Shown here piece after piece: positions 3,601 through 59,122 of a stretch of 64,000 nucleotides of DNA (within the stretch, counting starts at the first letter, position 1; every line of letters begins with the position of its first letter). The stretch spans positions 32,127-96,126 of the forward strand of contig JBBDJV010000015.1 of NCBI GenBank assembly GCA_040879725.1, in the 5' to 3' direction. The stretch is from Minisyncoccota bacterium (GTDB lineage: Bacteria; Patescibacteriota; Minisyncoccia; Phycocordibacterales; GCA-2401445). The notes under the pieces are model-generated. The model was not told where the DNA came from, did not search any database, and saw nothing but the letters and a program-made list of their open reading frames with translations. Position numbers and translations under genes: made by a program.

Positions 3601-6600
3601 GAGCTGCACCCGCCGGCTGGGAATGTGTATCATGTACTGGAGGGGATCCATTTTATCAAAGATTCATACGAGGAGGTGCTACCTATGGCGGAACGGGTGG
3701 AAGTGCAACTCACACTCATACTGCTTCAGTGTCAGTTGGGGGCCCTTCTGCAACTACCGGACAAACACCAGGAGGTTCGACTGTTTCAGGCTCAGGGCAT
3801 ACTCATACGTTCACTCCAACTGTAAGTTCCGCAAGCAATTTGCCTGAGTATCGTCAGTTGAGAGTATTACGTTCAACCAGCGCGGGAACTCCAGCAACAC
3901 TTCCTGCGGGAGCAATTGTTTTCTTTACCGATACAGTTCCAACTGAGTGGACTCGATACAGCGCGCAAGATGGACGTTTTGTTCGAGGTGAGAGTGGCGT
4001 TGGGACAACAGGAGGTGCAAACACTCACAGTCATACTATTACTGGTACCACCGGCGCGGCAAGTGGGGACACGTACGGCACTCAAAATGGACAGACGAGA
4101 GCGGATGTCGCTCAAGTAAACCACACGCACAGCGTATCTGGTTCAACCGATTCAGTAAGTAATACTCCTCCATACATAGAAACCATTTTAGGGAAAATTG
4201 ACGCAGACGGTTCTCTTCCAATTGGAATGCTCGCAATGTGGGATGAGGATGTTCCTGTAGGTTGGAATCACAAATCTGAATCAGGGGATCCATTTTTTGA
4301 GCGTTTTATTCTCCCTTCAGCTACATATGGAACAATCGGTGGGAATATAACTCATAGTCATGCTAATCAGAATATCGTGAGTGGAGGTCCTGCTCAAACT
4401 ACAACAGCTCGAGCAGGCGGTAATGTTTCTTCATCGGATCACACACACACTATTAGTTTAACAAGCTATTCGTCTCCGAGTCACCTGCCGCCATATATTA
4501 ATGTTGTGATAGCGGAGTTTTTGGGCACAGATCCCGTTTTCACACAAGCTCAATTCAGATGGTATACGAATGCTAATGTCGAAACTCCAACCGACGCATG
4601 GCCACAAGGAAGCACACTTAACTTAAACGAAAATGAACCAATTACTGCTACTTCTACACCGGTATCACCAGATGACGTTGTGCGTCTTCGTATGGCTGTT
4701 GGGGTAGGTAATGCAACATCTACCGCAGGTTCAGTTAACTTTAAATTGCAGTACGGTCAAGGTTCTGTTTGTAGCGCAGTAACAACATGGAGTGATGTAG
4801 GAGAAATAAGCAGTTCAACGCCGTGGATAGGATATGACAATACGAGTGTTCTGGATGGTGTTGAGTTATCTTCAACAACTCTCTCTCTTTCTAATGTGTT
4901 TGGTTCATATGAAGAGGAAAATAACTCAACCACAACACCAAATGATATAAGTGTTGGCGAGTATGTTGAGTATGATTGGGTTATTCAGCACAATAACGCT
5001 ACGAGTGGTGTTCCGTATTGTTTCAGAATGGTAGAAGGTGACGGTACTCAGTTTTTCACTTATACATCGTATCCTAAATTACAAACTAACTCTGCTCCGA
5101 ATACTCCGACTCTCGATCGTTTGTTTGATAATGAAAAAATTGCTTCAACTTCTCCACATTTTTGGTTTGATGCTGAAGATGATGAAGGTGATGCGTTGTA
5201 CTATCAGATACAAGTTGATGAGGATTTTGCCTTCGGATCTGTACTTATAGATAACAATTCTCAATCTCACGGAGATCAGTTTACAAACCTTATAAATCCT
5301 TCTCAAAAGGAGCCATATACTGAAGGAAATACAGTTCAGTTTATTCCAAGTAGCTCACTCTCAAACAATACAACGTATTGGTGGAGGGTTCGTGCATGGG
5401 ATCCTAATGGGTCTGAAGACTATGGAGAGTGGTCTGAACCACAAAGCTTCACAACCGATTCGAATATTGTTGAGTCTACATGGTTTCAGACAACAGACGA
5501 GCAGTTTGATACCAACACACTTAACGGAGTTAGGACGTTGGGAACAGATGCAGTTGAATTGAATGTTGGCTCAAGTACGGGTTCTATGTACTCAACATTT
5601 ATTGATTTTTCAGATGGTACGTATGGAAATATATGGGAAGAATTTTCATTTAATGACGCCGAAACAACTGGATCAATAAGTTATCAGGTTGAATACCAAA
5701 CAGACGAAGGGGCAGAGTTAGTTCCTGATAGTATTCTTCCTGGGAATAGTACAGGATTCGGTACTTCACCCGTAAATCTTTCAGGGGTAGATCCGGAAGT
5801 GTATGACAATCTTCGACTGGTAGCTAACTTTACCAATAGTGGTGGTAGTCCACAATTGCTTGATTGGACACTCAAATGGGGAACAAAAATCGATACTCCG
5901 ACATTACTTCTTCCTTTTGCAAATGAGCGTTTTCCAACCACCACACCAACATTCACATTCACTACTACAGACCAACAAAGTGACGATCTTCAGTATGAAG
6001 TGTCATGGTCAACCGTGTATGATTTCACATCCTCAACTACTCGAAACTCATCATTGCATGCCGGTTTTGCTAATACTGAAGATAGTGGAGACTCTGATCC
6101 ATTTACATCGGGAGATACGATTAGGTTTACAATACAACCTGCTGATGCTCTAACTGCTTCCACTACCTATTGGTGGAGAGTCCGCGCAAAAGACCCAAGT
6201 GGGGGTAATGCATTTTCTGACTGGTCTGAACCAAGAAGTTTTACCCATAATTATTTGGATGTTGTATCAACGTGGTTCCAAACTACCGATGAGCAATTTA
6301 ATACGAACATTCTTTCCGGAACACGAAGTACGGGTAGTGACTCTCTTACTGTCGCAACAACTTCGAACGAAGCTATGATTGTATACGGGGAAGGAGCAGT
6401 AACTACTCCACAGTTTCGAATATGGAACGGTTCGTCATGGTCGAGTGAAAGCAGTGCGCTTAGCGTAGACTCTCAAATAAATTGGGTGGCAGTAAAAGAA
6501 GCCCCTACAAGAGAAGAGTATGTTCTCGGAACACTTGGATTAGATAGTGATGTTAATGTTCAGGTATATAGTGAGGGTATTTGGGATAATCTCCTCGAAG

Positions 6601-9600
6601 TTACTGCTAGTATTAGCAATGCAGATAAACGCGGTTTTGATATTACGTATGAATCAATTTCAGGTGATGCTATGGTTGTAAGTTGTGATGGCGATTCAAA
6701 TCCTACGTACTACACATGGAATGGTTCGTCATGGTCATCACCGGGTACTATAACAACTTCCACAGGAAGTAGCTGTGAGTGGATTCGACTTGCGTCTAAT
6801 CCTGTGTCGGACGAAATTATTATGGTTACTCTGCCGGGTGGAGGAGGTCAATATGAAGCTCAAGTATGGAATGGTTCAGCGTGGGGAAATGCTGTGGTGT
6901 GGGGAGGCATGAGTGAAGCACATGAAGGAATTGGTGTTGCGTATCAACCAAACGGTGCCCTTGCTGTTGTTACTGTAAACAATGATGGTTCAACACCTCC
7001 AAACCGTATGTCATCTCGTACATGGAATGGTTCATTTTGGAGTGGTACTACCGATACAAACGTTGGATACTTTGAACAGGGAACGCTGGTCGCTGATGAT
7101 GGAACAAATAACATGAACCTCTGTTTTGTAAATGACGCTACAACGGTTCAAGGGTTACCGTGGACAGGCACAGCGTGGGGAACGCAAACACAGCTTGATG
7201 CAACCGCCCACGCGAAGAATGATCGCCCGGTTGACTGTGTATACGAAACTACAAGCGGAAGAGATGGAAATGTTTTGACTGCATACAGTGACACAACATC
7301 AGCTCGGTACAGTGTGCTTAGCGGGGGAACCTGGTCTGCTGAAGCAAGTATCAGCACTATCAGTCGTTCCGCAACGGTTCAGCTTGAACGTGTTGGTGAT
7401 GGACTTATTTTGGGAACCTTCTTCGATCATGTAAATGAGCGATACGACTTCTCTTATTGGAATGGTAGTGCATGGTCAACTGCACAAACGCTCGAAAATA
7501 CTCCGTCGGTAAGTTCTGCTCCATTTAAAGAACCGTTTATGATGGCTGCTCGCGGACCGGCAACTAGTGGTACGGTAGCGGTATCTCCGGGTATTGTATT
7601 TTCAGATGGGACCGGTCCGTATTGGGGTGAATTGTCATTTAGTAATACGACTCCTGGAGCAAGTGGGGTGCTTTATCAAGTACAGTACGCAACTGCTACA
7701 ACATATGAGCTTATTCCGGACGTAGACCTTACTGGCAACTCAACAGGCTTTACTACATCACCAGTTGATCTTACCGGTTTGGATATTACTACGTATGATA
7801 CTATTCGAGTCAGAGCGACACTTACCTGTGATGGTTCTGACTGTCCAACTCTAGATGATTGGACGGTGACGTGGGCTGAAGGCGCTACAGTGTCGGGTAC
7901 CATTGCAGAACATGATGAGACAACTGCTGTAACAGAAGGGACGGTAGCTGTTGCGGTAAATGGAGTATTGCAAACAGGTAAAACGGGTGAAATCCAAGGT
8001 GACGGAACATGGAGTATAACCAATGTTACTGCATTTGTTGATGATATTATTACCGTATTTGTAAGTGGCGCAACAAGTGAGAATAAGGCTGTCGCTGTTA
8101 CAAAGTATGATGGGGTGGGAGATATTACAGGCATTGAATTACATGAGCGACATCTTACATTTGGATCAGATGATACCTCGCCTGTTATTACAAACAGCGA
8201 TTTGGGACTTTTCGATATTGCTGTGGGAGGAAGTGATGTGTTCTTTGATGTGGACGCATCGAATAACTTAGTTGCAACTTCAACAGGAGGTGGTTTTGAC
8301 GATGTTGTTGTGTACGTAACTTCTGGAACAACATATAGGCCTGACAGTACATCAAGTGGAAATGTCTCCACTCACGATATTGCTATTTTAGGAACGATAA
8401 TGGCAGACGGAAACACAATTTCACTTTCAGGTTCCTGGAGAAATAGTAGTACTTTTAGTGAGGGTACGAGTCACGTTGTCTTTACCGCTCTAAGTGGTTC
8501 GGAAAGTATAGATTCTACAGGGGCGAGTGCGAGCAATTTTTATCGAGTTACCTTCGGACAAACTTCTGGTACTGCAACATGGTTACTCTCCACACCTCTT
8601 GTGGTAACAAACAACACTGCTGTTAATTACGGAACGTTATCTCCAGGCTCACAAACTCTTTCTTTGGGAGGTAATCTTGCTATTGGTTCAAGTGGTCTGT
8701 TTACTAAAGGTACCGCCACAACAACATTTAACGGAACGGGCAGTAGTGTTTGGTCTGATGCGTCTTCCTTAAAGCAGGATATGGGAATTGTTGTTATTGA
8801 TGGAACAAGTAAAACCGTTACTCTTGGTTCAAATGTTCAAGCAACTGATATTGTTATAGGAGCTAATGATACGTTTGATATAACAACAGGAAACTACAGC
8901 ATAGGTGTAAATGGTTCATGGACTAACAATAATACTTTTCTTTCACGACAGGGAGAGGTAAACTTTACCGGTTCGTCATTTGGAGTTTCTATTTTACCTG
9001 GCTCATCATCTTTTTATAACCTTTCATTTGGTGGAAGCGGCTCGTGGACTTTTGGTTCTACTAATATCACCGTAGTAAATGACTTTAGTATTTCAAATGG
9101 TTTTGTTACGCTTCCGAGCGGAACCACTACCATTAGTGGTTCGTTTCTTGCGACTGCGAGCGGGTCTTTTGCAGGGAATACCGGAACTGTCCTCTTTACC
9201 GGTTCATCTGGATCGGAAAGTATTAGTCAAAATAATTCAAGTTTTTATAATCTTGTACTCAACGGAAGTGGCTCTTGGTCATTTAGTGAGCAAAATGCAA
9301 CCACAACAAACAACGTTCAAATCCTTAGCGGTACGCTAACCGCTCCGTCTGGTGCATTAGCTATTGGAGGTTCATTTACAAATGCTGGAACATTTACTCA
9401 CAATAGTGGCGCACTTCGTTTTTACTCAAGTGGTGATAGTAAGGTAGTACAACCAGGTCTATCTTCCATAAATGACATTATTTTTGATGGATCAGGAGGC
9501 TGGGTTCTTTCTCCATCAGCAAATATAACTGTTTCCGGTGATGTGAGTATTATTTCAGGAACAGCAACATCAACAGCAGAAACACTTTCTGTTGGAGGTT

Positions 9601-12600
9601 CGTGGCTAGTTGGTCCCTCAGGAATATTTAATCACTACGACGGAACTATTGCTTTTAATTCAAGTGATACAGGCGAAACTATTGCTTCAGGAAATTCACC
9701 TTTTGGAACCGTTAGCTTCAATAACTCAAATGGAGGATGGGCTGTCACAGAGAACGCCACATCAAGTTCTGGTTGGAATATTACTGACGTATCTGAATTT
9801 ACCGTTGAGTCAGGTGTGGTTGTGGCTGTTGGTGGTGATTTTAGTAATGATGTCGGAGGTGCGGAAACAACATGGACAGGATCGACTTTGGTTTTAAATT
9901 CCAATACCCCATTCTCAATAAATGATAAATCAACCGGAAGTGACGAGTATGCTTCTATTGTTTTAAATAGTGGCACTAAAGTGAGTATGTGGAATTCGAG
10001 CGCAACGGCGGTTAGTGCTAACAGCGATTCTTATTTATATTCACAAGATCATGCTGGTGTAGATGGAAATCTTTATATTTGGGGTGAGTATGTGCGTTCA
10101 TCAGGTGTGGAGCATTGGAGCCATGCGACTGACTTTGACGGAACCAGTCTTTCTGGTAGTGAACGAGCTGTTTCTGTTTTGTTTGACTCAGGAGCTAGTG
10201 CGGAAATAAATAACTCAACGCTTTCAATTGTTGGCGGAGTGGGAGCAACAACAACAATTAATAATCAAGGAAGTGGAGCATACTCTCTTTCAGTAGTAAA
10301 TAGTACAACCACTGCACAGTATTATGCATTCAGGAACTTAGATAGTAGTGGTTTTGTTTTAACAGGAGAAACGTCTGTTACTTCATTATCAAATGGAGAT
10401 TTTGAATTATCAGCAGATGGAGGTTCACTTGTAACACTTTCTGCTGAAACAATCGATGAGAATCCAACATTACAGATTAGCCGGGTTCGTTTTGCAACCT
10501 CAACAGGAATAACGTCTGGATTTAACGTTACCGCAACAGGAACACCTACTTCGTACTGGTGGTATAGGAATCATTATGGCAATTATGCTGGAGAAGCGTT
10601 TGATAATGATCCGGGAGATAACCCTGGAAATATTCGTTGGGATGACAGCAATCTTTCAATCACTGTTTCGGGAATAGTCTATTATTCTGATCGTGCTACT
10701 ACAATGGGTAGTCCTGTGTGTGATGGAAGCACTAACACTGTTCGTGTAGATGTTCAGGGAGGAACAGGGGGAAGTGCTCCGTGTAATGCAACAACTGGAG
10801 AATTTTCAATCGAAGGGGTGTCATTAAGTGGAGACGGAATAGTAACAACATATCTTGATACAAATGGTGGATCACGCGCGGTGGCGATATCAAAAACTCC
10901 AACCGCAGACATAACTAATCTTGGACTATATGAAAGTTGGCTTACAATTAGGAACGAAGATGTGAATTCGGTATCAATATCTGACCTTGTTGCCTTTGAT
11001 AGCTCGGGTGATTCTGATGTATTCTTCTCTGCAAATGAAGGCTCACCGGATACGTTGGTCTTGGAGGATGGTTTTGGATTATATGTTGAAGAAGGGAAGT
11101 CTTTTTCACCTAATGGAAATATAACACTTGTTTCAGGGAGTACTGATTTCGTTGCGGGAACATTTGAGCTGGGAACAAGTAGCCTTTTGACGTTTAATGA
11201 CGGAGAAGACCATGCAGTTGGCGGAAGCTTTATAGTAGGGACTAACGCAACCGCAACAGTAGCAAGTTCAAGTCTTACCTTTACCGCTACAACTTCCGGA
11301 AAAACCATTACACCTAATGGCTCATCACTCTATGATGTTGCCTTTACTGGTGTTGGTGGCGAATGGGAACTTAGTACCTCGAGTATTACGGGGGACTTTG
11401 TAGTAACCGCGGGAACTGTTGTTGGAACTTCAGATGTTTTGGTAACCAGCGGTTCAATAACCGGAAATGGCGTGCTTGCATTTACTGATGGCGCAGTAAC
11501 ACTTCAGAAAGCAGGAAACTTCGGAGGTTCGGAAAACTGGACATTCGCTAACTTGGTATTTGGTGACGGTACAACAAATGCAACTACAACAAAAATTGGA
11601 GCGAATAATATTCTGGTGGAAAATCAATTAACCATAGACACAAATCATGTTCTTCTTGCAGGAGATGATGAGTGGGAATTAGGAGGAAGTGGTACTCCGT
11701 TTGTAATTTCAGGAGACTTTGACGCGGAAACTTCAACCGTTACCTATAGTGGGACAAGCGCGACAACAGTTACTGCCGAAGAGTATAACGCTCTTACTCT
11801 TGCACCGTCTGGAGCGGGATCTCCAAACTACACTCTTGCCTCAGGGTCCTTTATTCTAAATACATTAGTAGTAGGTGACGGGGTTAATACGGTTTCGGTT
11901 AATGCAAACACCACTGATCCTTTAGTAAATGTAAATGGTGATGTAACAATAAATAGCAACGCAACATACGTATCATCAAATAGCTCATTGCTTTCCGTGG
12001 GGGGAAGTTGGACAAACAATGGTGCCTTTACGCATAGTAATGGAACGGTACTATTTAACTCAAGTGACACGGGAGAAATTGTATCTTCAGGTAATTCAGC
12101 GTTTGGAAATCTTCTATTTAGTAATGTTTCAGGCGGATGGGCTATTTCAGGAAATGCAACAACAAGCGGTAATTTAATTCTCGCATCAAGTACTTCCTTT
12201 ACTCTTTCTCCTGGTAGTACGCTTTCGGTTGGTGGGATGTTTGAAAACCAACTTGATGGAGGAGTAACAACATGGGACGGAACAACATTGGTTCTCGAAG
12301 GTGCGGTAGGATACTCAGTCAATTCAGCGACAAGTACAGGGGATACATACAATACATTAGTTATTGATGAAAATACCGATGTCCGCCTCTGGTCCTCATC
12401 CGCAGGAACCACCACTGTCGCAAGTACCGCATCACTCTACTCACAAGACCACGCAGGAGTAGACGGTGACCTCTACATCTGGGGAGACTATCGCCGAACT
12501 ACCGGTAATGACTACTGGAGCTATGCTACTGACTTTGACGGAACCGCACTTACCGGAGGAAGTGAACGACAAGTAAACGTACGCTTTGCTCCAAATGCTT

Positions 12601-15600
12601 CTACTACAGTAACCGGTGGAAGTTTGCAGATTATCGGAACATCAGATGCTACGACGACTATAGATAGGCAGAGTACGGGGAATTACGGTATTGAGATAGA
12701 AGGTGGTACGTTCACGGCTTCTTACTATAGTTTTGAAAATATGGGTTCTCGCGGACTTGGGTTTAGCGGAACACCGACAGTAACAAATATTTCAGATGGA
12801 GATTTTGAGTTGGGACTCGAAGGACAGACGCTCATAACGGTAGACGCAAGTGTTATTGATGCAAATCCAACTAAAACATTCAGTAGAAATCGTTTTGCTA
12901 CAGCAGGTTCTGTTACGAGTGGAATAAACGTTACTGTGGAGGGAACGTCCGTAAGTTCGTGGAGGTTTAGTGACCACTATGGTGATTTGGACGGTGAAGC
13001 AAATGACAGCGATCCAGGCGGTGATCCAGGATATGTTATTTGGGATGATAGCGCGGGAGATATTACTGTATCTGGTGTTGTGTATCAGAACGATAGAGTT
13101 ACTCCTGCTGGTGGAGCAGTGTGTGATGGAACAACGAATGTCGTTCGGCTTTTGGTGGAGGGAGCGGGTAGCTACTTCGTGCCGTGTGCTTCAGGAACAG
13201 GAGTATACACAATACCAAGTGTAACTTTCTTACCGAGCGATGTCTTCACGGTATTTCTTGATAATGCATCCGAAGATGCTGTAGCGGTAACGTACGGAGC
13301 ACTTACCAGTATTGCAAATATGCACCTTTATACAGATCACGTAATAGTGCGTCACGAAGGAGTAGACCCGATTACCATAAGTGAACTTGCGGTATATGAT
13401 GGAGGTGATGATGCGGATATTCCGTATACAACAACCCTAACTCCCGACACACTTTCTACTGGAGCGGGTACCGCTCTCTATGTATGGCAAGGAAAAACAT
13501 TTACTCCGGGAGGAGATGTGACGGTTACGGGAAATGGTACAACCAATGAGTATGACGGTACGCTGTATGTGTGGCAGAATGCAAATTTTGTTGCCGAAGG
13601 CAGTGAGTATTTCACTATCGGAGGAAGCTTGATTGCGAGCTCGAGCGCGGTTATTACCAGTGCTAGTTCAGATTTTGACTTTACTTCAACCGCTACCGGA
13701 AAAGTGGTACGCACAAACAGCTCGCCACTAGCTTCAGTTACATTCTCAGGTAGTGGAGGCGCGTGGTCCTTCCCCGAAACAACCGTTTCAGTGGAAGATG
13801 ATTTTACCATTACTGCTGGATCGGTAAGTCTTCCTGTGGGCACAACGACAGTTGCCGGATCATTTATAAATAATGGAGGAACCTTCACGCATAATAGTGG
13901 AACAGTGCAGTTAAATGGAACAGAAGTTGGTAATTCAATTCAAGTTGGTGGATCAGACTTCTATAACCTAACAATCGGAGGTACGGGTTCTTGGACATTC
14001 CTTGATACCAATGCAACCACAACAAATCAACTTCGCTTTGAGTATGGCTCAACAACGCTTCCGTCAGGGGTACTTACTGTGGGCGCTACACTTACTTCTG
14101 TAAATGGAACCTTTAATCACAACAACGGAGATGTGAAATTTATTTCTACCAGTTCAGGTAATGTTATTACCCAAAAAGGCTCAGGATTTGGCGGAATAAC
14201 TTTCGATGGTACTGGAGGATCTTGGTCATTTGCACAAAGTGTCGCTACTACTACCAAGGACTTCGCTATTGTAAACGGTTCGGTTGCATTACCGACAGAC
14301 ACGCTTCGGGTCGGAGGTTCGTTTATTAACGAAGGTTCATTCAGTCACAGTACCGGTACGGTGTTAATGAATTCCGCACTTACGGGAGAGGTAATAACTC
14401 CGGGAAGTGATCCATTCCATAACCTAACAATACAAAACAGCGCAGGGGGATGGACGCTTACCGGTTCAGCTACCACAACAAATAACTTTAACCTTTCTAC
14501 CAGCACAAGCTTTACTCTTGTTCCGGGTTCAACCTTGAATGTCGGGGGTTCATTTACAAATACCTCGGGCGGTGCGGGAACTTCGTGGGACGGAACGACG
14601 ATAAACCTTACTGGAGGCAATAGTTATTCAATAAATGGACGATTAAGCTCCGGAGATGAATACAATACTCTGGTAGTATCTACAACAACAAAAGCTCGCC
14701 TCTGGTCCTCATCCGCAGGAACCACCACTGTCGCAAGTACCGCATCACTCTACTCACAAGACCACGCAGGAGTAGACGGTGACCTCTACATCTGGGGAGA
14801 CTATCGCCGAACTACCGGTAATGACTACTGGAGCTATGCTACTGACTTTGACGGAACCGCACTTACCGGAGGAAGTGAACGACAAGTAAACGTACGCTTT
14901 GCTCCAAATGCTTCTACTACAGTAACCGGTGGAAGTTTGCAGATTATCGGAGCATCAGATGCTACGACGACTATAGATAGGCAGAGTACGGGCACGTATG
15001 GTCTTTCTGTGCTCGGAGGAACAGTAAATGTAGATAGATATCAGATAAGAAATATTGATGAATTGGGATTGTATATTTCTGGACAACCTACCGTTACCAG
15101 TCTTTCAAATGGAGATTATGAGCTCGATAAAGAGGGTGGTTCAATGATTACTGTTTCTTCCACAACGATTGATTTCAACCCATCGCTCTTTATTGGTGGT
15201 GCAAAATTTGCAACATCTACTGGAATAACAAGTGGATTCAACGTGACGTTGCTGGGAACACCAATAAATGCGTGGACTTTTACTGGGCATAGCGGAAATT
15301 ACGATGGAGAAGCATATGACAGTGATGGTGGAGATGCATGTGGAAAAATACGATGGAGTGACAGTGTGTGTCTCTTTGTAAGTCAAGAAAGCTATAGATT
15401 TAGAAATGATGACGGAGGGGAAGGGGTCCCTAATGACGAGTGGTACCATTCAGATTGGGATAAACGTATGAGAATTGCGATTACAAACGCTTCCACTTCA
15501 GCGCTCACAAATCAACAAGTAAAAATTGAGTTACCAAAGGCCACTGATATGCAAAGTGATTACGGAGACCTTCGGTTTACCGACAACTCAGGAACAACGA

Positions 15601-17660
15601 CAATTGATTATTGGATTGAAAGTTACACAACAGCAACTTCAACTGTGTGGGTAAAAGTTCCAAATCTCCCAGCAGAAGAAACCACTGGTATATACGTGTA
15701 CTATGACACTGTAGCAACACTCGATACTGATGGGGTAGCCACATCAACATTGATCGTATACGACGGTTTTGAGGATAACAATATAAGTGAGTATTCAGGG
15801 GACACTAGTATGTTTTCTGTATCGACAGGTTTTGATTTTGAGGGAACCTATGGACTTACATCTTCTTCAGGAAATGAAGACCAAAGAACAACAGATGGTA
15901 TTTACCGCACAGGTACAGGAAGTACCGTTTCGCAAGGAGAAACGATACATTTTGCACAATATATTGATACCTCGCTCGGTTTTCAGGATGAACCGTGTAT
16001 GGTGTTTGGTGTGCAAACACCGGGGTCAAATAATGAAAACTATGCAGTGTGTTTGGATGTATTTGGAGATTCTGTTGTTATTTCAAAAGATGTTTCTTCA
16101 AATGATGGTTCAGGAACAATACTGGCAAGCGATACTTCGGTAGGATTTTCAAGTGGGTGGTATGAAGTTGAGATTGACTGGCTCACAAGCGGAGTAATTA
16201 ATGTTGCTGTATACGATGATTCCGGTGCGCTCTTTTCTGAAGTAAGTACCACGGATTCAAGTTATAGTTCCGGAGGGTATGGATTTGGTTTTTGGATTCA
16301 GTACGGAGGATGGGATTATGTAAGTTCTTGGAAATATACTGAAGTTGTGCCGACGTATACGATTGGTATTGAACAAGTGGGTGAAGGTGCAACGTGGAGT
16401 AGTGCCGAAAACAGCCCTCTTGCGGGGCAGTCAGTAGGTGAAGATATGCGACTTCGATTCCTTGTTCAAAACTCAGGTCCGGAAATTACTGATCAAAACT
16501 TTAGATTACAAGTTGCATCAAAGGAGGGGTATGGTAGCTGTTCGTCTGTACCATACGGAAGCTTCAGTGATGTTCCTGTAAGTGGAAGTTGTGGATCCTC
16601 AGTTGCGTGTATGTCTACATCAAGTCAGGTGGTTAATAGTGCTTTAACCACACAACTGCTCTCTGTTCCTGATAGCGTGACTTTTACGCAAGGTCGTTTT
16701 GTTGAAAGTCCTTCAAACCAAACGTCAAACATTGATATCGGAACTAATCTCTATACTGAAGTTGAATATATATTTGATCTGACAAATTACGCCGTAGATT
16801 CCGCATACTGTTTGAGAACGACAGATTCTGGAACACCACTTGATAACTACGCGAATATTGCAGAGGTAAGTTTGATCCATGCCCCGACAATCACAAACTT
16901 TAACCTAAATGATAATCAGAATATTGAACTCTCAGTTGGGGCATCTACAACCATTTATGCGACAGGAACAGTAATTGACCTAAACGGATATGAAGATTTA
17001 GTGTACGCAACATCAAGTATTTATCGAACCGGTGTGGGGGCAACGTGTACTCCTGATGACAATTCATGTTATCAGGTTGCAAGTACGTCTTGTTCATTTG
17101 TAAATTGTTCTGGAAACAGCTGTGACGTGATATGTAGCGCTGACATTGCTTTCTTTGCGGATCCAACCGATGGTGGAGTGTTTGAGGCGGAAGAGTGGGA
17201 AGCTGAAATAACGGTGGTGGACCAAGGTGAGATTAGAGATACTGGTATTACCATGGGTGTTGAAATGGGAACACTTCGAGCACTTACTGTCGAAAATGAA
17301 ATTGATTACGGAACACTCGAAGTGGCAAGTAACACAGGAGATGCCAATGCAACAAGTACGGTAATTAATAAAGGAAATGACACTATTGATGTAAATCTGT
17401 ATGGTACTGACTTGGTGGGAGGTGCTAGTACGATTTCGGTAAATAATCAAAAGTTTGCAACGTCAACATTCTCATATAGTGCTTGTACTATTTGTCCATT
17501 TCTTGATAGTTCTCCTGTTCCTGCAGGTATTGATTTGAGTAAACCGACAACTACGGTGCCCGTAATGACTGAAATTTACTGGGGGTTGAATGTACCAATA
17601 GGTACCGCGGGTGTACCTCACTTTGGACAAACGACATTTGAAGCTACAGGAAGTGAGTAG
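696..17660 (+). CDS. giant (5,654 aa) multidomain secreted/surface protein, likely an adhesin
   Basis: A single uninterrupted ORF, starting at GTG 696 or ATG 711. It has an N-terminal hydrophobic anchor/signal, an acidic S/T-rich linker, an Ig-like module, three tail-collar repeats, FN3-like 'YWWRVRA' modules, a 'WNGSSWS' repeat run, very long Gly/Ser/Thr/Asn beta-helix-like repeats, DUF2341-like and LamG-like modules, and a C-terminal domain shared with the 22397..24229 protein. Confidence 0.85.
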   Translation: MDVFEMRLINLLKKDIWVVGSLLLIVLVVSGNTYLKNVYADPVIEDSVYLLPTKVESVGWNNVSTVGVQEISSDGTLGAFNKSNSAFVIFKNGEYAKEEAVIPVRETGVPKAEKIDVGETKETEGQEKLDNEESIQDFIATTTATTTTDKSVSTSTPVAESLEPENEELEGEGEEEQSTTTDSVENHNVSEEVSEEVDSEETSTSSEEVNLDTQQEINEEENNSAVEEESTDSVENENNASSSAPVTRFLNAIKRAVFSLVPSFVFADEVSTTTETSTPKVSSTTVPVEEVSSTTSVTTTPQIVTSEEEKQATEKEIEEKQVAVPSKPSEDEVIDTEAPTLTVLGNNPAVLAIGSTYNDLGVTVSDNINNNLGFKTSVDGVEVSVVSLDTKSEGVYEITYSVVDQAGNTGTAKRMVYVGIEPEEKIVSEAENETILDTFTCDNSEACTTNVLEVSGFGVGGEVFGEGLIDTAQLRISMGSNIAHSKTNELPLKLEIEYFYNESWFSAGSIVLDEEVSNAINGGYFLYALPFFESWAEFADFKVRIRYDHNKELEGGVYIDSIWIEAFSGEGINKEEFGLTKEEKKRAEIEKGMKKPKLHSVIKGKPAFEIDENPEFEFEYELQRSNISRFFRGLFKDDPDYRVSSVEIKTASGQDIDLPISLRYGGGERWGFSVEKNNESLHPGKYEVSITIHEGSKSFTDSFEFYWGVLTVNTNKSIYSPQETALFSMAALTDNGHTMCDAILRLVVVDPDQSETVVPVEKSGLCDGNNVIDVPDYFGEMQLAGVGEYQVSLERYNEEGGLVIQTNDIFEVRDYVPFDVEREGPTRIYPPAPYVMSISFRANEAFDGVITETVPKGFIIEESEGANVVVKEDVVEISWPVSVRAGERILKTYRFDAPDISPYIYETGPLVFKKEIATTSFQEMSTSSPLCSEGFCEEEITEEVVFQEIRTWKIASDAVGRMLILWDGGAAPAGWECVSCTGGDPFYQRFIRGGATYGGTGGSATHTHTASVSVGGPSATTGQTPGGSTVSGSGHTHTFTPTVSSASNLPEYRQLRVLRSTSAGTPATLPAGAIVFFTDTVPTEWTRYSAQDGRFVRGESGVGTTGGANTHSHTITGTTGAASGDTYGTQNGQTRADVAQVNHTHSVSGSTDSVSNTPPYIETILGKIDADGSLPIGMLAMWDEDVPVGWNHKSESGDPFFERFILPSATYGTIGGNITHSHANQNIVSGGPAQTTTARAGGNVSSSDHTHTISLTSYSSPSHLPPYINVVIAEFLGTDPVFTQAQFRWYTNANVETPTDAWPQGSTLNLNENEPITATSTPVSPDDVVRLRMAVGVGNATSTAGSVNFKLQYGQGSVCSAVTTWSDVGEISSSTPWIGYDNTSVLDGVELSSTTLSLSNVFGSYEEENNSTTTPNDISVGEYVEYDWVIQHNNATSGVPYCFRMVEGDGTQFFTYTSYPKLQTNSAPNTPTLDRLFDNEKIASTSPHFWFDAEDDEGDALYYQIQVDEDFAFGSVLIDNNSQSHGDQFTNLINPSQKEPYTEGNTVQFIPSSSLSNNTTYWWRVRAWDPNGSEDYGEWSEPQSFTTDSNIVESTWFQTTDEQFDTNTLNGVRTLGTDAVELNVGSSTGSMYSTFIDFSDGTYGNIWEEFSFNDAETTGSISYQVEYQTDEGAELVPDSILPGNSTGFGTSPVNLSGVDPEVYDNLRLVANFTNSGGSPQLLDWTLKWGTKIDTPTLLLPFANERFPTTTPTFTFTTTDQQSDDLQYEVSWSTVYDFTSSTTRNSSLHAGFANTEDSGDSDPFTSGDTIRFTIQPADALTASTTYWWRVRAKDPSGGNAFSDWSEPRSFTHNYLDVVSTWFQTTDEQFNTNILSGTRSTGSDSLTVATTSNEAMIVYGEGAVTTPQFRIWNGSSWSSESSALSVDSQINWVAVKEAPTREEYVLGTLGLDSDVNVQVYSEGIWDNLLEVTASISNADKRGFDITYESISGDAMVVSCDGDSNPTYYTWNGSSWSSPGTITTSTGSSCEWIRLASNPVSDEIIMVTLPGGGGQYEAQVWNGSAWGNAVVWGGMSEAHEGIGVAYQPNGALAVVTVNNDGSTPPNRMSSRTWNGSFWSGTTDTNVGYFEQGTLVADDGTNNMNLCFVNDATTVQGLPWTGTAWGTQTQLDATAHAKNDRPVDCVYETTSGRDGNVLTAYSDTTSARYSVLSGGTWSAEASISTISRSATVQLERVGDGLILGTFFDHVNERYDFSYWNGSAWSTAQTLENTPSVSSAPFKEPFMMAARGPATSGTVAVSPGIVFSDGTGPYWGELSFSNTTPGASGVLYQVQYATATTYELIPDVDLTGNSTGFTTSPVDLTGLDITTYDTIRVRATLTCDGSDCPTLDDWTVTWAEGATVSGTIAEHDETTAVTEGTVAVAVNGVLQTGKTGEIQGDGTWSITNVTAFVDDIITVFVSGATSENKAVAVTKYDGVGDITGIELHERHLTFGSDDTSPVITNSDLGLFDIAVGGSDVFFDVDASNNLVATSTGGGFDDVVVYVTSGTTYRPDSTSSGNVSTHDIAILGTIMADGNTISLSGSWRNSSTFSEGTSHVVFTALSGSESIDSTGASASNFYRVTFGQTSGTATWLLSTPLVVTNNTAVNYGTLSPGSQTLSLGGNLAIGSSGLFTKGTATTTFNGTGSSVWSDASSLKQDMGIVVIDGTSKTVTLGSNVQATDIVIGANDTFDITTGNYSIGVNGSWTNNNTFLSRQGEVNFTGSSFGVSILPGSSSFYNLSFGGSGSWTFGSTNITVVNDFSISNGFVTLPSGTTTISGSFLATASGSFAGNTGTVLFTGSSGSESISQNNSSFYNLVLNGSGSWSFSEQNATTTNNVQILSGTLTAPSGALAIGGSFTNAGTFTHNSGALRFYSSGDSKVVQPGLSSINDIIFDGSGGWVLSPSANITVSGDVSIISGTATSTAETLSVGGSWLVGPSGIFNHYDGTIAFNSSDTGETIASGNSPFGTVSFNNSNGGWAVTENATSSSGWNITDVSEFTVESGVVVAVGGDFSNDVGGAETTWTGSTLVLNSNTPFSINDKSTGSDEYASIVLNSGTKVSMWNSSATAVSANSDSYLYSQDHAGVDGNLYIWGEYVRSSGVEHWSHATDFDGTSLSGSERAVSVLFDSGASAEINNSTLSIVGGVGATTTINNQGSGAYSLSVVNSTTTAQYYAFRNLDSSGFVLTGETSVTSLSNGDFELSADGGSLVTLSAETIDENPTLQISRVRFATSTGITSGFNVTATGTPTSYWWYRNHYGNYAGEAFDNDPGDNPGNIRWDDSNLSITVSGIVYYSDRATTMGSPVCDGSTNTVRVDVQGGTGGSAPCNATTGEFSIEGVSLSGDGIVTTYLDTNGGSRAVAISKTPTADITNLGLYESWLTIRNEDVNSVSISDLVAFDSSGDSDVFFSANEGSPDTLVLEDGFGLYVEEGKSFSPNGNITLVSGSTDFVAGTFELGTSSLLTFNDGEDHAVGGSFIVGTNATATVASSSLTFTATTSGKTITPNGSSLYDVAFTGVGGEWELSTSSITGDFVVTAGTVVGTSDVLVTSGSITGNGVLAFTDGAVTLQKAGNFGGSENWTFANLVFGDGTTNATTTKIGANNILVENQLTIDTNHVLLAGDDEWELGGSGTPFVISGDFDAETSTVTYSGTSATTVTAEEYNALTLAPSGAGSPNYTLASGSFILNTLVVGDGVNTVSVNANTTDPLVNVNGDVTINSNATYVSSNSSLLSVGGSWTNNGAFTHSNGTVLFNSSDTGEIVSSGNSAFGNLLFSNVSGGWAISGNATTSGNLILASSTSFTLSPGSTLSVGGMFENQLDGGVTTWDGTTLVLEGAVGYSVNSATSTGDTYNTLVIDENTDVRLWSSSAGTTTVASTASLYSQDHAGVDGDLYIWGDYRRTTGNDYWSYATDFDGTALTGGSERQVNVRFAPNASTTVTGGSLQIIGTSDATTTIDRQSTGNYGIEIEGGTFTASYYSFENMGSRGLGFSGTPTVTNISDGDFELGLEGQTLITVDASVIDANPTKTFSRNRFATAGSVTSGINVTVEGTSVSSWRFSDHYGDLDGEANDSDPGGDPGYVIWDDSAGDITVSGVVYQNDRVTPAGGAVCDGTTNVVRLLVEGAGSYFVPCASGTGVYTIPSVTFLPSDVFTVFLDNASEDAVAVTYGALTSIANMHLYTDHVIVRHEGVDPITISELAVYDGGDDADIPYTTTLTPDTLSTGAGTALYVWQGKTFTPGGDVTVTGNGTTNEYDGTLYVWQNANFVAEGSEYFTIGGSLIASSSAVITSASSDFDFTSTATGKVVRTNSSPLASVTFSGSGGAWSFPETTVSVEDDFTITAGSVSLPVGTTTVAGSFINNGGTFTHNSGTVQLNGTEVGNSIQVGGSDFYNLTIGGTGSWTFLDTNATTTNQLRFEYGSTTLPSGVLTVGATLTSVNGTFNHNNGDVKFISTSSGNVITQKGSGFGGITFDGTGGSWSFAQSVATTTKDFAIVNGSVALPTDTLRVGGSFINEGSFSHSTGTVLMNSALTGEVITPGSDPFHNLTIQNSAGGWTLTGSATTTNNFNLSTSTSFTLVPGSTLNVGGSFTNTSGGAGTSWDGTTINLTGGNSYSINGRLSSGDEYNTLVVSTTTKARLWSSSAGTTTVASTASLYSQDHAGVDGDLYIWGDYRRTTGNDYWSYATDFDGTALTGGSERQVNVRFAPNASTTVTGGSLQIIGASDATTTIDRQSTGTYGLSVLGGTVNVDRYQIRNIDELGLYISGQPTVTSLSNGDYELDKEGGSMITVSSTTIDFNPSLFIGGAKFATSTGITSGFNVTLLGTPINAWTFTGHSGNYDGEAYDSDGGDACGKIRWSDSVCLFVSQESYRFRNDDGGEGVPNDEWYHSDWDKRMRIAITNASTSALTNQQVKIELPKATDMQSDYGDLRFTDNSGTTTIDYWIESYTTATSTVWVKVPNLPAEETTGIYVYYDTVATLDTDGVATSTLIVYDGFEDNNISEYSGDTSMFSVSTGFDFEGTYGLTSSSGNEDQRTTDGIYRTGTGSTVSQGETIHFAQYIDTSLGFQDEPCMVFGVQTPGSNNENYAVCLDVFGDSVVISKDVSSNDGSGTILASDTSVGFSSGWYEVEIDWLTSGVINVAVYDDSGALFSEVSTTDSSYSSGGYGFGFWIQYGGWDYVSSWKYTEVVPTYTIGIEQVGEGATWSSAENSPLAGQSVGEDMRLRFLVQNSGPEITDQNFRLQVASKEGYGSCSSVPYGSFSDVPVSGSCGSSVACMSTSSQVVNSALTTQLLSVPDSVTFTQGRFVESPSNQTSNIDIGTNLYTEVEYIFDLTNYAVDSAYCLRTTDSGTPLDNYANIAEVSLIHAPTITNFNLNDNQNIELSVGASTTIYATGTVIDLNGYEDLVYATSSIYRTGVGATCTPDDNSCYQVASTSCSFVNCSGNSCDVICSADIAFFADPTDGGVFEAEEWEAEITVVDQGEIRDTGITMGVEMGTLRALTVENEIDYGTLEVASNTGDANATSTVINKGNDTIDVNLYGTDLVGGASTISVNNQKFATSTFSYSACTICPFLDSSPVPAGIDLSKPTTTVPVMTEIYWGLNVPIGTAGVPHFGQTTFEATGSE
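3574..4520 (+). other. three tandem phage tail-collar (MdpB-like, Pfam Collar-type) repeats inside the giant protein
   Basis: The recurring motif chain is 'G.L..W.G..P.GW..C.G' ... 'RF.RG...G..GG...HTH(T)' ... 'LPPY/TPPYI..I'. The three instances end NLPEYRQLRVL, TPPYIETILGKI and HLPPYINVVIAEF. Confidence 0.6.
12384..12680. repeat. intragenic near-identical direct repeat, copy 1 (about 297 bp)
   Basis: The nucleotide string 'cgcctctggtcctcatccgcaggaacc...gcagattatcgga' is identical to 14697..14993 except for one mismatch. Confidence 0.9.
14697..14993. repeat. intragenic near-identical direct repeat, copy 2
   Basis: This copy lies 2,313 bp downstream of copy 1 and encodes the same ~99-aa block (RLWSSSAGTTTVASTASLYSQDHAGVDGDLYIWGDYRRTTGNDYWSYATDFDGTALTGGSERQVNVRF...). 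A diverged third copy is at ~9981..10280. Confidence 0.9.
15440..15710 (+). other. DUF2341-like module in the giant protein
   Basis: 'DWDKRMRIAITNAS...QQVKIELPKA...DYGDLRFTDNSGTTTIDYWIESY...TVWVKVPNL...GIYVYYDT' follows the DUF2341 pattern W..R..I.I......L..FP.L...F.D..G..L..E.E...........WVK.P.L....I.MYYGN. A LamG/ConA-like region follows. Confidence 0.45.
16870..17657 (+). other. C-terminal ~260-aa domain of the giant protein, homologous to the C-terminal half of the 22397..24229 protein
   Basis: Aligned blocks: YRTGVGATCTPDDNSCY ~ YRSGVTAASC..DPNNCY; FFADPTDGGVFEAEEWEAEITVVDQ ~ FLADATDAGSFYAAEDWRATVTATDD; NQKFATSTFSY ~ NQKFGTTTTGY; EIYWGLNVPIGTAG ~ DIYWGIGIPGTITFAG. Confidence 0.7.
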
Positions 17661-33005: not shown

Positions 33006-33026
33006 ATAATATAGAAAACAAAAAAG

Positions 33027-33050
33027 CGCCTTCGGGCGCTTTTTTGTTTT
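33027..33050 (+). terminator. rho-independent terminator
   Basis: 'gcgcc ttcg ggcgc' followed by TTTTTTGTTTT. Confidence 0.8.
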
Positions 33051-33167
33051 CACTATGAAGAATAAATAGAATAAACCTTAGAGAAATCTGTCAAAAAAAT
33101 TCCTGAGGTTTAACCTCAGGAGACAAGTAACAGATATGACAACCCTCCACAAATACAAAACCCCCAA

Positions 33168-33189
33168 GTGTACCGATATATCGGTACAC
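33168..33189. promoter_or_regulatory. perfect 22-bp palindrome (candidate operator or structured element) in the 340-bp gap before secE
   Basis: 'GTGTACCGATATATCGGTACAC' is self-complementary with no mismatch. Confidence 0.3.
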
Positions 33190-33314
33190 TTGTATTCACA
33201 CGCATAGCTGATTTTGCTTAGGCTGTAATTCAATACAAAGGAATCCCTTTTGTATAGACGGTAAGTGCTGATAGTGTGGGTTATATTTGAATTAAGCCAC
33301 GCATTATGGTGTGG

Positions 33315-33344
33315 TTGACAACTATACTACATATCTAGTATGAT
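33315..33344 (+). promoter_or_regulatory. candidate sigma70 promoter for secE-nusG-rplK
   Basis: TTGACA, an 18-nt spacer, then TATGAT, about 40 nt before the secE ATG. Confidence 0.5.
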
Positions 33345-36728: not shown

Positions 36729-37571
36729 CTACACAATCATCTTCGCTTTGATAGGGTCGTGGTGTTTGTAGTTTTCAAGTTTGATATCGTCCATGGTGAA
36801 CGCGTCAATATCAGTGATGTCTGGGTTAAGCCATAGTGTCGGAGGTGTTAAAGGAGTACGAGAAAGTTGTTCTTTTACTGCGTCAAAATGTTCGTGATAA
36901 ATATGAGCGTCGTTCAAGGTGAGTATGCATTCATGTGCTTTTTTGCCTGTTACTTGTGCCACCATTGCGAGCATGAGGGCATAGGAAGCGATGTTGAAAG
37001 GAACTCCCAAGAACATATCACAACTCCTCTGTATCATGTGAAGTGAAAGTTTGTCGTCGTGTACAAAAAACTGGAACATCATATGGCAAGGAGGAAGTGC
37101 CATGTCGTCCATTTCGCCCGGGTTGAACGCGGTAACAAGTAGTCGTCTGTCGTGTGGGTTTGTTTTTATCTTCTGAATAACTTCCGCAAGTTGATCAACC
37201 GTTGTTCCGTCCGGCTTTTTCCATTTTCTCCATTGTATTCCGTACACTCGTCCAAGATCTCCATCAGACTGAGCTTTTGGCTTCCAATAGTCTGATTCCG
37301 CATTTGCGGTCCAGATTGTTGAATCTTTACCGACAAGTTTTTTTAGGTCGTTGTCATTCATGCGGTCTTTTTTCCCGCCTGCTTCAATAAACCAGAGTAG
37401 TTCACTTTTTACTGCCTTAAACGCAAGCTTTTTCGTGGTAACTGCAGGGAAGCCATCTTCCATGTTAAAGCGCATTTGAATAGCAAATAACGCTCGAGTG
37501 ACCGCATTTCTTGTTTGTCTGTCGTGTCCTTCATCAAGGATGCGCTTGAGTACATCATTATATATTTTCAT
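36729..37571 (-). CDS. thyA: thymidylate synthase (ThyA)
   Basis: 'ALPPCHMMFQFFV' carries the catalytic Cys and 'GVPFNIASYAL' has Asn at the dUMP-specificity position. The gene ends tail-to-tail with the MazG-like gene at zero gap. Confidence 0.9.
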   Translation of the reverse strand: MKIYNDVLKRILDEGHDRQTRNAVTRALFAIQMRFNMEDGFPAVTTKKLAFKAVKSELLWFIEAGGKKDRMNDNDLKKLVGKDSTIWTANAESDYWKPKAQSDGDLGRVYGIQWRKWKKPDGTTVDQLAEVIQKIKTNPHDRRLLVTAFNPGEMDDMALPPCHMMFQFFVHDDKLSLHMIQRSCDMFLGVPFNIASYALMLAMVAQVTGKKAHECILTLNDAHIYHEHFDAVKEQLSRTPLTPPTLWLNPDITDIDAFTMDDIKLENYKHHDPIKAKMIV

Positions 37572-41226: not shown

Positions 41227-41307
41227 AGATGTTCATTTTCAGCTGTGGCGAAATGTAGTAGTCACACATCAACAAAAATAGCGAAAACCAAGAAAGGAAA
41301 AACCGCT

Positions 41308-42031: not shown

Positions 42032-42089
42032 TAAGAAATAATTGACAGGGTAGGTATTTAAACGTACATTACTTTTAGTTCTTTGATAC
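42032..42089 (+). repeat. 58-bp promoter-containing direct repeat, copy 2
   Basis: Identical to 41169..41226. Confidence 0.85.
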
Positions 42090-42096
42090 GAAGGTT

Positions 42097-42146
42097 GGTC
42101 ATAGCGAAAAGCCTTTTAACTATGTTCAGGGTTTCTCGCTATGACC
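42097..42146 (+). promoter_or_regulatory. 17-bp stem / 16-nt loop hairpin in the 5' leader of 42217..42894
   Basis: 'ggtcatagcgaaaagcc' pairs with 'ggtttctcgctatgacc' (1 mismatch, 1 G-U). Immediately downstream is a tandem 'acagatatg' x2, giving a 3-codon uORF (ATG GGC AAC TGA). Confidence 0.5.
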
Positions 42147-42216
42147 ATGCTGGAAATAGCACCCACCTCGGTGTAGAGGTACAGATATGGGCAACTGAGC
42201 CCAAGGAGATACAGAT

Positions 42217-57834: not shown

Positions 57835-58035
57835 ATGGCACAATGCTATTTCACACAAAACGGGATTAAGCATATTGACTATAAGGATATTGAACTTCTC
57901 AAGAAGTTTATCAATCCTCATGCACGTATGCAGTCTCGAAAGCGGACAGGAGTAAGTGCAAAAAACCAGCGAAAGCTGGCACTTGCAATAAAACGCGCTC
58001 GATACATGGGATTACTTCCTTACGTATTACGATAA
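57835..58035 (+). CDS. rpsR: 30S ribosomal protein S18
   Basis: '[13 protein letters not shown]...[25 protein letters not shown]'. Confidence 0.9.
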
Positions 58036-58039
58036 TAAA

Positions 58040-58067
58040 AAACGCCCTTCATAAGGGCATTTTTTAT
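58040..58067 (+). terminator. rho-independent terminator after rpsR
   Basis: 'gccctt cata aagggc' followed by ATTTTTT. Confidence 0.75.
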
Positions 58068-58104
58068 ATGAAAAGAGAAAGGGAAAGAGGAAAGGGGTTT
58101 TTAT

Positions 58105-58140
58105 AAAATAAAAACCCCCTCGCACCGAAGTGCGAGGGGA
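58105..58140 (-). terminator. minus-strand intrinsic terminator
   Basis: On the minus strand this reads 'cccctcgcac uucg gugcgagggg' followed by UUUUUAUUUU. Confidence 0.65.
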
Positions 58141-58487
58141 TGATGCGGAGCAATGTGTTCCACTTTAGCCTTACCTGGATGACTCGTTCGTTCACTGAGT
58201 GAGCTTAGAGAAAACATACAGGCAGATTTCCACAACCAACACGTCGACGTGTTTTCCGCGCATCCACTTGGATATGCAATATCAGCTGTTAACCGAGTTG
58301 TGTACTAGGGATTTCTCTACCCTGTAAGAGACTGCAAGTTCCGTCTATAACCGGCAGTTGTATCATTCAAGGATGTTGAGGTCCCACGACCCTGCGTGCT
58401 AACAAGTAATACAAGCAGACAGTTTTAGGCTATTCCCGTTTAAGGGAATCATTATTATTTTCTTGCGGAAGGGACAGTGCTTTCCAT
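58105..58487 (-). ncRNA. candidate ~380-nt structured noncoding RNA of unassigned class
   Basis: A 517-bp gap between convergent rpsR and efp has no ORF of 60 aa or longer on either strand. A minus-strand promoter lies at 58488..58516 and a minus-strand terminator at 58105..58140. Several internal hairpins are present, including the palindrome 'aacacgtcgacgtgtt'. Confidence 0.3.
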
Positions 58488-58516
58488 ATACTATAGAAAA
58501 GTGATTTTATTGTCAA
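58488..58516 (-). promoter_or_regulatory. candidate minus-strand sigma70 promoter
   Basis: On the minus strand it reads TTGACA, a 17-nt spacer, then TAGTAT. Confidence 0.4.
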
Positions 58517-58552
58517 TAACCGCTCATGTGAGCGGTTATTTAGTGACAAGTA

Positions 58553-59122
58553 TTATTTTACCCGTTCTACGTATTCGCCAGTTACTGTATTTATACGTAG
58601 AAATTCTCCTTCTTCAATAAACATAGGAACTGTTACCATTGCACCTGTTTCAAGCTTTACGAGCTTATTTCCGCCTTGTGCGGTACTTCCTTTTACGTTT
58701 GGCGGAGCTTCGACTACTTTAAGATCCACTTTGTGGGGAAGCTCTACTCCGATAACTTGTTCATTGAATATAAGCGCGGTAATAGTCGAGTTGGGAAGTA
58801 GATACTGTGTTGCTGAACCAAGCAGTGCTTCTTCTAGCTTGAAGCGCTTTGAAGCATCGTTTGCGTCACAGAACCACCATTCTCCCTTATTGCTGTAGAG
58901 GAATTTTTTATCTACCTTTTCAATGTCTGCTTCCTGCACTTTATCAGATACGTGGAATGAATACTCAGTCACGCGACCAGATATCATATTTTTCAGCTTT
59001 GTTGCATTTACCGGTTTACGTTGTTGCTTGCGAAATACGTGACTGGTAAGTACTTCAAACGGTTCACCATCCATAATGATGTATTTTCGTTCGCGGATTT
59101 CATTGTATTCAAGCATTGACAT
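58553..59122 (-). CDS. efp: elongation factor P
   Basis: 'MLEYNEIRERKYIIMDGEPFEVL...RKQQRKPVNATKLKNMISG' is the EF-P pattern. I chose the start by homology; the ORF-track start is 59140. Confidence 0.85.
   Translation of the reverse strand: MSMLEYNEIRERKYIIMDGEPFEVLTSHVFRKQQRKPVNATKLKNMISGRVTEYSFHVSDKVQEADIEKVDKKFLYSNKGEWWFCDANDASKRFKLEEALLGSATQYLLPNSTITALIFNEQVIGVELPHKVDLKVVEAPPNVKGSTAQGGNKLVKLETGAMVTVPMFIEEGEFLRINTVTGEYVERVK

Follow-up and report, generated by a model that had tools for sequence, protein, structure and literature searches.

A putative lineage-specific noncoding RNA gene in the efp-rpsR gap of an uncultured Paceibacteria genome

Bacterial small RNAs (sRNAs) that act by base pairing are typically 50-250 nt long, and the long examples among sRNAs are the 300-400-nt RNAs of the CsrB/RsmZ type and other orphan sRNAs; the mRNAs of hok-type type I toxin-antitoxin systems, at about 400 nt, fold back on themselves so that their 5' and 3' ends pair. 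Of the housekeeping RNAs, that of the signal recognition particle (SRP) is expected to measure about 100-270 nt and 6S RNA about 180 nt. The genomes of the candidate phyla radiation (CPR, also called Patescibacteria) are tiny and dense and leave little room for junk, and to our knowledge their noncoding RNAs have hardly been studied. The subject here is the gap between the convergent genes rpsR (plus strand) and efp (minus strand) in a 64,000-nt stretch of contig JBBDJV010000015.1 (the window, whose positions serve as coordinates throughout), from an uncultured CPR bacterium, a Zambryskibacteria-like member of the Paceibacteria. The unit under study lies on the minus strand of this gap. Its promoter and terminator signals, its noncoding nature, its lack of membership in any known RNA family and its insertion relative to related genomes are direct observations; the reading favoured here, for which the chances stand about even, is that of a noncoding RNA gene of about 375 nt, specific to its lineage and transcribed on its own, which occupies a variable site between the terminators of efp and rpsR.

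The gap is 517 nt long (58036-58552) and is the largest in the window without an open reading frame (ORF), the runner-up having 329 nt; its core has a G+C content of 0.45, against 0.32-0.42 in the other intergenic gaps, and that of the whole window is 0.42. Since the genome is dense and these 517 gene-free nucleotides carry an intact promoter and terminator, the gap is a reasonable candidate for a functional RNA. The promoter, of the sigma-70 type, consists of TTGACA at 58516-58511, a spacer of 17 nt and TAGTAT at 58493-58488. By a loose criterion (at least 9 of 12 positions matched) promoters are not enriched in the region, with two found for 2.5 expected. A strict scan of the whole 64 kb, requiring a perfect TTGACA, at least 10 of 12 positions overall, a spacer of 17-18 nt and an acceptable -10 box, returned four sites, every one of them in the few intergenic gaps; because three of these (33315, 41179 and 42042) stand directly upstream of plus-strand genes, the fourth, in the gap under study, is probably real and active as well.

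A transcript from this promoter would start near 58481 (58482-58480), about 7 nt past TAGTAT. The intrinsic terminator T1 lies about 345 nt from the promoter; its stem (58141-58114) has 12 bp, 8 of them G-C, is capped by a UUCG loop, folds at -23.8 kcal/mol and is followed by the U-tract UUUUUAUUUUAU. Terminator-like sites are enriched in the region, six being found where 1.2 would be expected. One of the inverted repeats, I7, overlaps the G-run and the U-tract of T1 and is a possible alternative hairpin to it. Beyond T1 the bidirectional terminator of rpsR would double as a back-up for the minus-strand unit. On the efp side, the hairpin of inverted repeat I4 (58515-58540) is not followed by a clean U-tract and extends with its 3' arm into the -35 hexamer; its probable role is that of efp terminator or of a stabilising hairpin. 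In the nearest relative (GCA_964436015.1, here locus L081), whose elongation factor P (EF-P) is 75% identical, the efp terminator lies at the position equivalent to I4, and since efp therefore retains a hairpin of its own at that place, the unit is taken to be separate from efp. An earlier note on this DNA, made from the letters alone, had claimed a discrete promoter-to-terminator noncoding unit on the minus strand, and the signals and the lack of coding capacity argue that such a unit is present: the gap is the largest free of ORFs, the promoter is found at 58488-58516 and T1 is a strong terminator with its U-tract, while the separate plus-strand terminator of rpsR means that the region is not simply an rpsR 3' untranslated region (UTR). 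The hairpin and the 16-nt palindrome quoted in that note also occur, both in the sequence and in the predicted fold.

The unit has no protein-coding capacity. No ORF in the gap exceeds 44 amino acids, and reading any one of the stop codons as sense opens no credible gene. The genes of the window lack Shine-Dalgarno sequences and many have a TATAAT-like box 7-10 nt before their ATG (for example at 26472, 31180, 32208, 36729-37571 on the minus strand, and 47197), a pattern that suggests widespread leaderless mRNAs in the host; the inferred start of the unit (AAGCAC) offers no start codon. The gap has 14 stop-free segments. A log-odds score for codon usage, with 25 genes from the window as training set, came to between -0.33 and +0.12 bits per codon in the ten longest of them. 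Wrong frames of real genes have a mean of -0.21 (standard deviation 0.24) and true frames a mean of 0.36 (5th percentile 0.09), and because the gap segments match the wrong-frame distribution they are read as noncoding. Pfam found nothing in the same ten segments, and when 12 small proteins from the corresponding gaps of relatives were compared with this gap by tblastn, the best expectation value (E) was 0.17. The longest open frame, of 67 codons (58104-58304), was searched with HMMER against 1.84 billion representative proteins and gave a single match, P0121, which is a translated CRISPR array. That match was set aside as chance, its score inflated by repeats, the window having neither a CRISPR array nor a second copy of the matching string. 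The string itself lies at 58242-58295 on the minus strand, where GCATATCCAAGTGGATGCGCGGAAAAC, present in a single copy, is translated as AYPSGCAEN and resembles VYPRGCGEN of P0121; the resemblance is judged coincidental. The claim that the unit is noncoding, which the earlier note would have given up for a small protein gene, thus stands by ORFs, alternative codes, Pfam, the protein library and codon usage alike.

Nor does the unit belong to a known RNA family. At the gathering score Rfam 15 has no match anywhere in the 64-kb window, and ARAGORN finds no transfer-messenger RNA (tmRNA) there. At E <= 10 with lax filters, the region 57900-58700 has no RNase P, tmRNA, SRP or 6S RNA on either strand, and the list consists only of weak matches driven by terminators (RsaE, anti-hemB, PyrG/PyrR leaders and CRISPR-DR4). 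As a side observation, neither a transfer RNA nor a gathering-score Rfam family was seen in the window, or in the roughly 245 kb of syntenic sequence that 40 loci of relatives and L081 provide.

The efp/rpsR junction is a hot spot of small-gene turnover. Of 80 genomes of related species, 42 have retained the convergent efp/rpsR arrangement; in 27 of these the rpsR match begins 9-192 nt downstream of efp, and in 15 the distance is 320-620 nt and is mostly taken up by small membrane-protein genes on the rpsR strand. The small genes of the longer junctions encode 84-131 amino acids and belong to several unrelated families. One family of small membrane proteins, with the motif LK..CP....C...P..F.PL, was found at eight loci (L002, L024, L027, L041, L048, L049, L056 and L062), all of them Paceibacteria; its members have 86-102 amino acids, lie on the rpsR strand and share invariant L21, K22, C25, P26, C31, P35, F41, P43, L44, E63 and W71. 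Unrelated small membrane proteins stand at the junction in L001/L013, L077 and L081, and the small ORF in L036, likewise unrelated, has no evident membrane association. An all-against-all comparison gave an apparent conserved noncoding block downstream of efp, which proved to be the short rpsR gene, and no analogous unit was found in the three relatives whose long gaps are otherwise unexplained (L005, L030 and L037). The nearest available relative runs collinear with the window for 17 kb, with nucleotide identities of 67-80%, and also has an equivalent rpsR terminator. The element itself is absent from the syntenic site in L081 and in all 42 loci that keep efp and rpsR together.

The sole other public copy is a Logan contig from SRR27977663, 100% identical to the window, and exact look-ups of EF-P and ribosomal protein S18 returned only that contig. 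EF-P of the window is at most 67% identical to that of Zambryskibacteria and other Paceibacteria species representatives, and the lineage is thinly sampled, EF-P identity stepping from 100% to 75% and then to 69% or less. A miniature inverted-repeat transposable element or other repeat was also considered for the unit and rejected: there is no second copy within the window, and the 15-nt direct repeat that flanks it is only 80% identical.

In the predicted fold of the minus strand the two ends of the unit are brought together, 58149-58171 pairing with 58465-58481 and 58427-58431 (in RNA numbering, positions 312-334 with 2-18 and 52-56); the 3' strand of these helices includes a string like conserved region (CR) II of RNase P RNA, taken up below. 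The predicted ensemble is well defined, most helices having P > 0.85, and the folding energy of the minus strand with its terminator is -119 kcal/mol (z = -3.3). The coordinates of this and the other features of the locus are collected in Table 1.

Table 1. Features of the efp-rpsR junction, in window coordinates
Feature	Position	Strand	Basis and remarks
rpsR (ribosomal protein S18)	57835-58035	+	ORF list; convergent neighbour; final gene of rpsF-ssb-rpsR
Bidirectional rpsR terminator	58035-58067 (arms), stem 58044-58058	both	Terminator scan; inverted repeat I2, 93% complementary
28-nt purine tract (plus) / CU-rich pyrimidine tract (minus)	58070-58097		Sequence; between T1 and rpsR terminator
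Second perfect inverted repeat I7, GGGGTTTTTAT / ATAAAAACCCC	58094-58118		11 nt, 100% complementary
Intrinsic terminator T1	58104-58141	-	Terminator scan; 12-bp stem, UUCG loop, then UUUUUAUUUUAU
Predicted transcript, about 375 nt	58105-58482	-	Start inferred from -10 position; end taken as U-tract end
3' strand of predicted long-range closing helices	58149-58171	-	Partition function; pair probabilities 0.95-0.98
16-nt palindrome aacacgtcgacgtgtt (= AACACGUCGACGUGUU)	58238-58253	-	Sequence; predicted 6-bp hairpin, pair probability 0.97
5' strands of predicted closing helices, 58481-58465 and 58431-58427	58427-58481	-	Fold; flank hairpin AUUCCCUUAAACGGGAAU (58449-58432)
Hairpin attcccgtttaagggaat	58432-58449	-	Sequence; pair probability 0.89
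Sigma-70-type promoter, TTGACA-17 nt-TAGTAT	58488-58516	-	Promoter scan; 10 of 12 positions match
Perfect 12-bp inverted repeat I4	58515-58540	-	100% complementary; folds at -19.5 kcal/mol; adjoins efp stop
efp (EF-P) coding sequence	58553-59116	-	ORF list; upstream neighbour on minus strand, stop at 58553

For an RNA gene of this kind the following course can be pictured, in which transcription, fold and any function are steps that we infer. Transcription would begin near 58481, some 7 nt downstream of TAGTAT, and the transcribed body of about 340 nt would fold into a multi-hairpin structure shut by the long-range 5'/3' helix; transcription would stop at T1 (58141-58104), with the rpsR terminator in reserve. 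Since no gene follows on the minus strand that it could control, the product would then be a free RNA that binds proteins or regulates in trans. Besides the signals and the lack of coding capacity, the higher G+C of the core and the well-defined predicted fold support this reading; so do a predicted closing helix that joins ends defined independently by the promoter and the terminator, and the retention of 517 nt in a dense genome at a place where most relatives have 9-192 nt.

Several results weigh against it. With the terminator, the plus strand folds almost as well as the minus strand (z = -3.27), and without it the thermodynamic support is weak on both (z = -2.0 for the minus and -1.5 for the plus strand). 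Thirty random windows from the same genome have a mean z of -0.27 (standard deviation 0.97), and a value as low as that of the candidate occurs in two of them. End-to-end pairs are predicted to number 18 or more in 6% of shuffled sequences and in 5% of genomic windows, so that the structural evidence stands at about the 5% level and is suggestive rather than compelling. When the RNA was set with RNAduplex against the 46 translation-initiation regions of the window, the best energy was equal to the shuffle mean. In the nearest relative the place between the two terminators is filled by an unrelated 88-amino-acid gene with a TTGACA promoter of its own. No homologue of the element was found by nhmmer and blastn in 80-82 efp loci, by BLAST in distant mode against phages and plasmids, in two exact-pattern scans of JGI metagenome contigs, or in four scans of viral contigs (one chance 18-mer match, L084). 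Among the outcomes that the earlier note had named as telling against its claim are the lack of an Rfam match and the lack of conservation in related genomes, and both are seen here. Because the lineage is so thinly sampled, the second is weak evidence against function; against an essential housekeeping RNA with a stable locus it is good evidence. A novel sRNA, which that note had offered as one of two possibilities, stays the best reading of the unit, and an unproven one. It is a long shot that a new class of trans-acting, structured noncoding RNAs of large size (about 340-375 nt) exists in the CPR/Paceibacteria and that this unit is its first member to be sampled; the RNA would be closed by a 5'/3' helix and might, for example, bind proteins or serve as a scaffold. 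Equally doubtful is the corollary that its relatives are too divergent or too poorly sampled to be reached by sequence searches.

The leading alternative to an RNA gene is a non-functional leftover of gene turnover, in which the signals would be relics of a lost small-protein cassette, or accidental, and the 345 nt between them a decaying spacer, perhaps idly transcribed. The history of the junction lends itself to this, given the 15 relatives of 42 with 320-620 nt and their small genes, and the promoter-bearing 88-amino-acid gene that the nearest relative has at this very site; the spacing of promoter and terminator would suit a gene of about 100 amino acids, the element is an orphan, and the structural evidence is marginal. 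Yet no residual coding signal is left in any frame, nothing in the gap resembles the small proteins of the relatives, Pfam families or the representative protein library, and the relatives have their junction genes on the opposite strand. Decay sufficient to erase all coding in a streamlined, deletion-biased genome would also not be expected to leave the -35 hexamer and the 12-bp terminator intact, as they are here. A leftover is thus a possible explanation, on the unlikely side.

The near-consensus promoter that separates efp from the body of the unit also speaks against regarding the unit as an extended efp 3' UTR or cis element, formed by read-through of the 58515-58540 hairpin to T1, with a tail that modulates mRNA stability or yields a 3'-UTR-derived sRNA. 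The unit does lie on the efp strand, the hairpin after efp lacks a proper U-tract, and T1 is the first canonical terminator past efp; relatives, however, end efp at once and have no such tail, and this explanation is considered unlikely.

A little less likely again is that the unit encodes one or more very small proteins, as a small mRNA or a dual-function RNA. Candidates are the 17-amino-acid MIPLNGNSLKLSACITC (start at 58452), which has an A-rich upstream context like that of the real genes of this genome, which do without a Shine-Dalgarno sequence, and a frame of 38-44 amino acids ending in the terminator. The start codon of the former falls within a hairpin stem with a predicted pair probability of 0.89. 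The frame at 58104-58304, for all that it is the longest open one in the gap, crosses the terminator stem, has its first ATG only at 58217, scores -0.05 bits per codon and has no homologues; and no candidate is hydrophobic in the manner of type I toxins.

There remains the suggestion of the earlier note that the unit might be a divergent housekeeping RNA, with strings reminiscent of CR-II and CR-V of RNase P RNA in the wrong order. A length of about 375 nt and a 5'/3' closing helix would suit RNase P RNA or tmRNA, and CAGGUAAGGCUAAAG matches positions 167-183 of M1 RNA, the product of E. coli rnpB (L085), which served as the reference. CPR bacteria have divergent RNase P RNAs, which Rfam thresholds often fail to catch (Lui et al., 2021; PMC8172020), though those in that study were still recovered by RF00010 when the thresholds were lowered (PMC8172020). 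The two strings are indeed present, in the wrong order as had been said, and their similarity to M1 is no better than that of shuffled sequence. The best local alignment, of CAGGTAAGGCT-AAAG with M1 positions 167-183, has a score of 20, which 96 of 500 dinucleotide shuffles reach; the best 18-mer of the CR-II-like string agrees with M1 at 14 of 18 positions, as well as or less well than 9 of 60 shuffles; and the CR-V-like string agrees at no more than 9 of 17 ungapped positions anywhere in M1, the best site being an unrelated one. No more than about four contiguous pairs can be drawn by eye between GAGAAAUCCC, which resembles CR-I, and CUGCCGGUU, which resembles CR-V, so that there is no P4 helix; in the predicted fold both lie inside local hairpins, and most of the CR-II-like string is paired rather than in a junction. 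A circularly permuted RNase P RNA with its ends in P12, which would explain the wrong order, was considered and rejected for the same lack of P4 pairing and because the CR-II-like string is predicted to be paired. The unit, at about 375 nt and predicted to be multi-branched, is also unlike SRP or 6S RNA in size. With no match in Rfam at E <= 10 (where the covariance models RNaseP_bact_a/b, tmRNA, SRP and 6S that the earlier note had named gave nothing) and none from ARAGORN, with M1 similarity at chance, and with the site empty of it in the collinear L081 and the 42 syntenic genomes, which would be unexpected for an essential RNA, a highly divergent, permuted or relocated RNase P or other housekeeping RNA (tmRNA, SRP or 6S) is very improbable, and the idea in its bolder form, in which an RNase P RNA would have moved here and become permuted or extremely divergent, is barely credible.

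As to the two genes that border the unit, EF-P homologues carry PF08207, PF01132 and PF09285, and S18 has a match to PF01084 on the identical Logan contig. Elsewhere in the window, the second-largest ORF-free gap (33006-33334; 329 nt, G+C 0.36) opens with a terminator at about 33022-33047, and its interior has the hairpin ttcctgaggtttaacctcaggag and the palindrome CAAGTGTACCGATATATCGGTACACTTG, perfect over 28 nt (about 33167-33194). It is closed by a perfect TTGACA-18-TATGAT promoter at 33315-33344; its role could be that of a 5' leader or operator, or of some other noncoding element. The perfect-TTGACA promoter at 42042 stands about 147 nt upstream of the gene at 42217 and implies a long 5' leader (42042-42216, plus strand); the gene at 41245 likewise has a promoter of this kind before it, at 41179. 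Both may have leaders of the ribosomal-protein type that go unrecognised by Rfam. One ORF of 5654 amino acids with a GTG start (696-17660, plus strand) takes up a quarter of the window; giant proteins are typical of CPR genomes.

If it is expressed, the unit would be one of few candidate sRNAs for the Paceibacteria, and the variable efp/rpsR junction would host RNA genes as well as genes for small membrane proteins. As an orphan of a single genome it leaves RNase P and core RNA biology unaffected; it is plausibly an unverified orphan intergenic sRNA candidate of a well-known kind, and its main appeal lies in how little is known of sRNAs in CPR bacteria.

Compared with known systems, the unit resembles RNase P RNA (RF00010/RF00011) in its length, its predicted terminal 5'/3' helix and one 15-nt string like CR-II, and differs from it in having no covariance-model match, no ordered conserved regions, no P4 pairing and no conserved locus. 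The C-rich sRNAs RsaE/RoxS (RF01820) give a weak match (28 bits, E = 0.017) over the CU tract between the terminators, at 58038-58123; this is far below the gathering score of 79, lies past T1, away from the main body, and owes its score to a pyrimidine tract with a terminator on either side. (That tract, at 58070-58097, would if transcribed by read-through be rich in CCUC/UCCC motifs like anti-Shine-Dalgarno sequences.) With hok-type mRNAs the unit shares a similar length, predicted end-to-end pairing and an intergenic location, and unlike them it has no small hydrophobic ORF and no antisense promoter was found for it. It differs from CsrB in that its GGA motifs are not enriched, seven being counted for about five expected, and from typical base-pairing sRNAs in being, at about 375 nt, far longer and in having no seed region or target identified in the window. 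The closest likeness in organisation is to sRNA genes in general, which the unit matches in standing alone between convergent genes with its own promoter, a Rho-independent terminator, a predicted multi-hairpin body and no ORF, and in being, as most sRNAs are, specific to its lineage.

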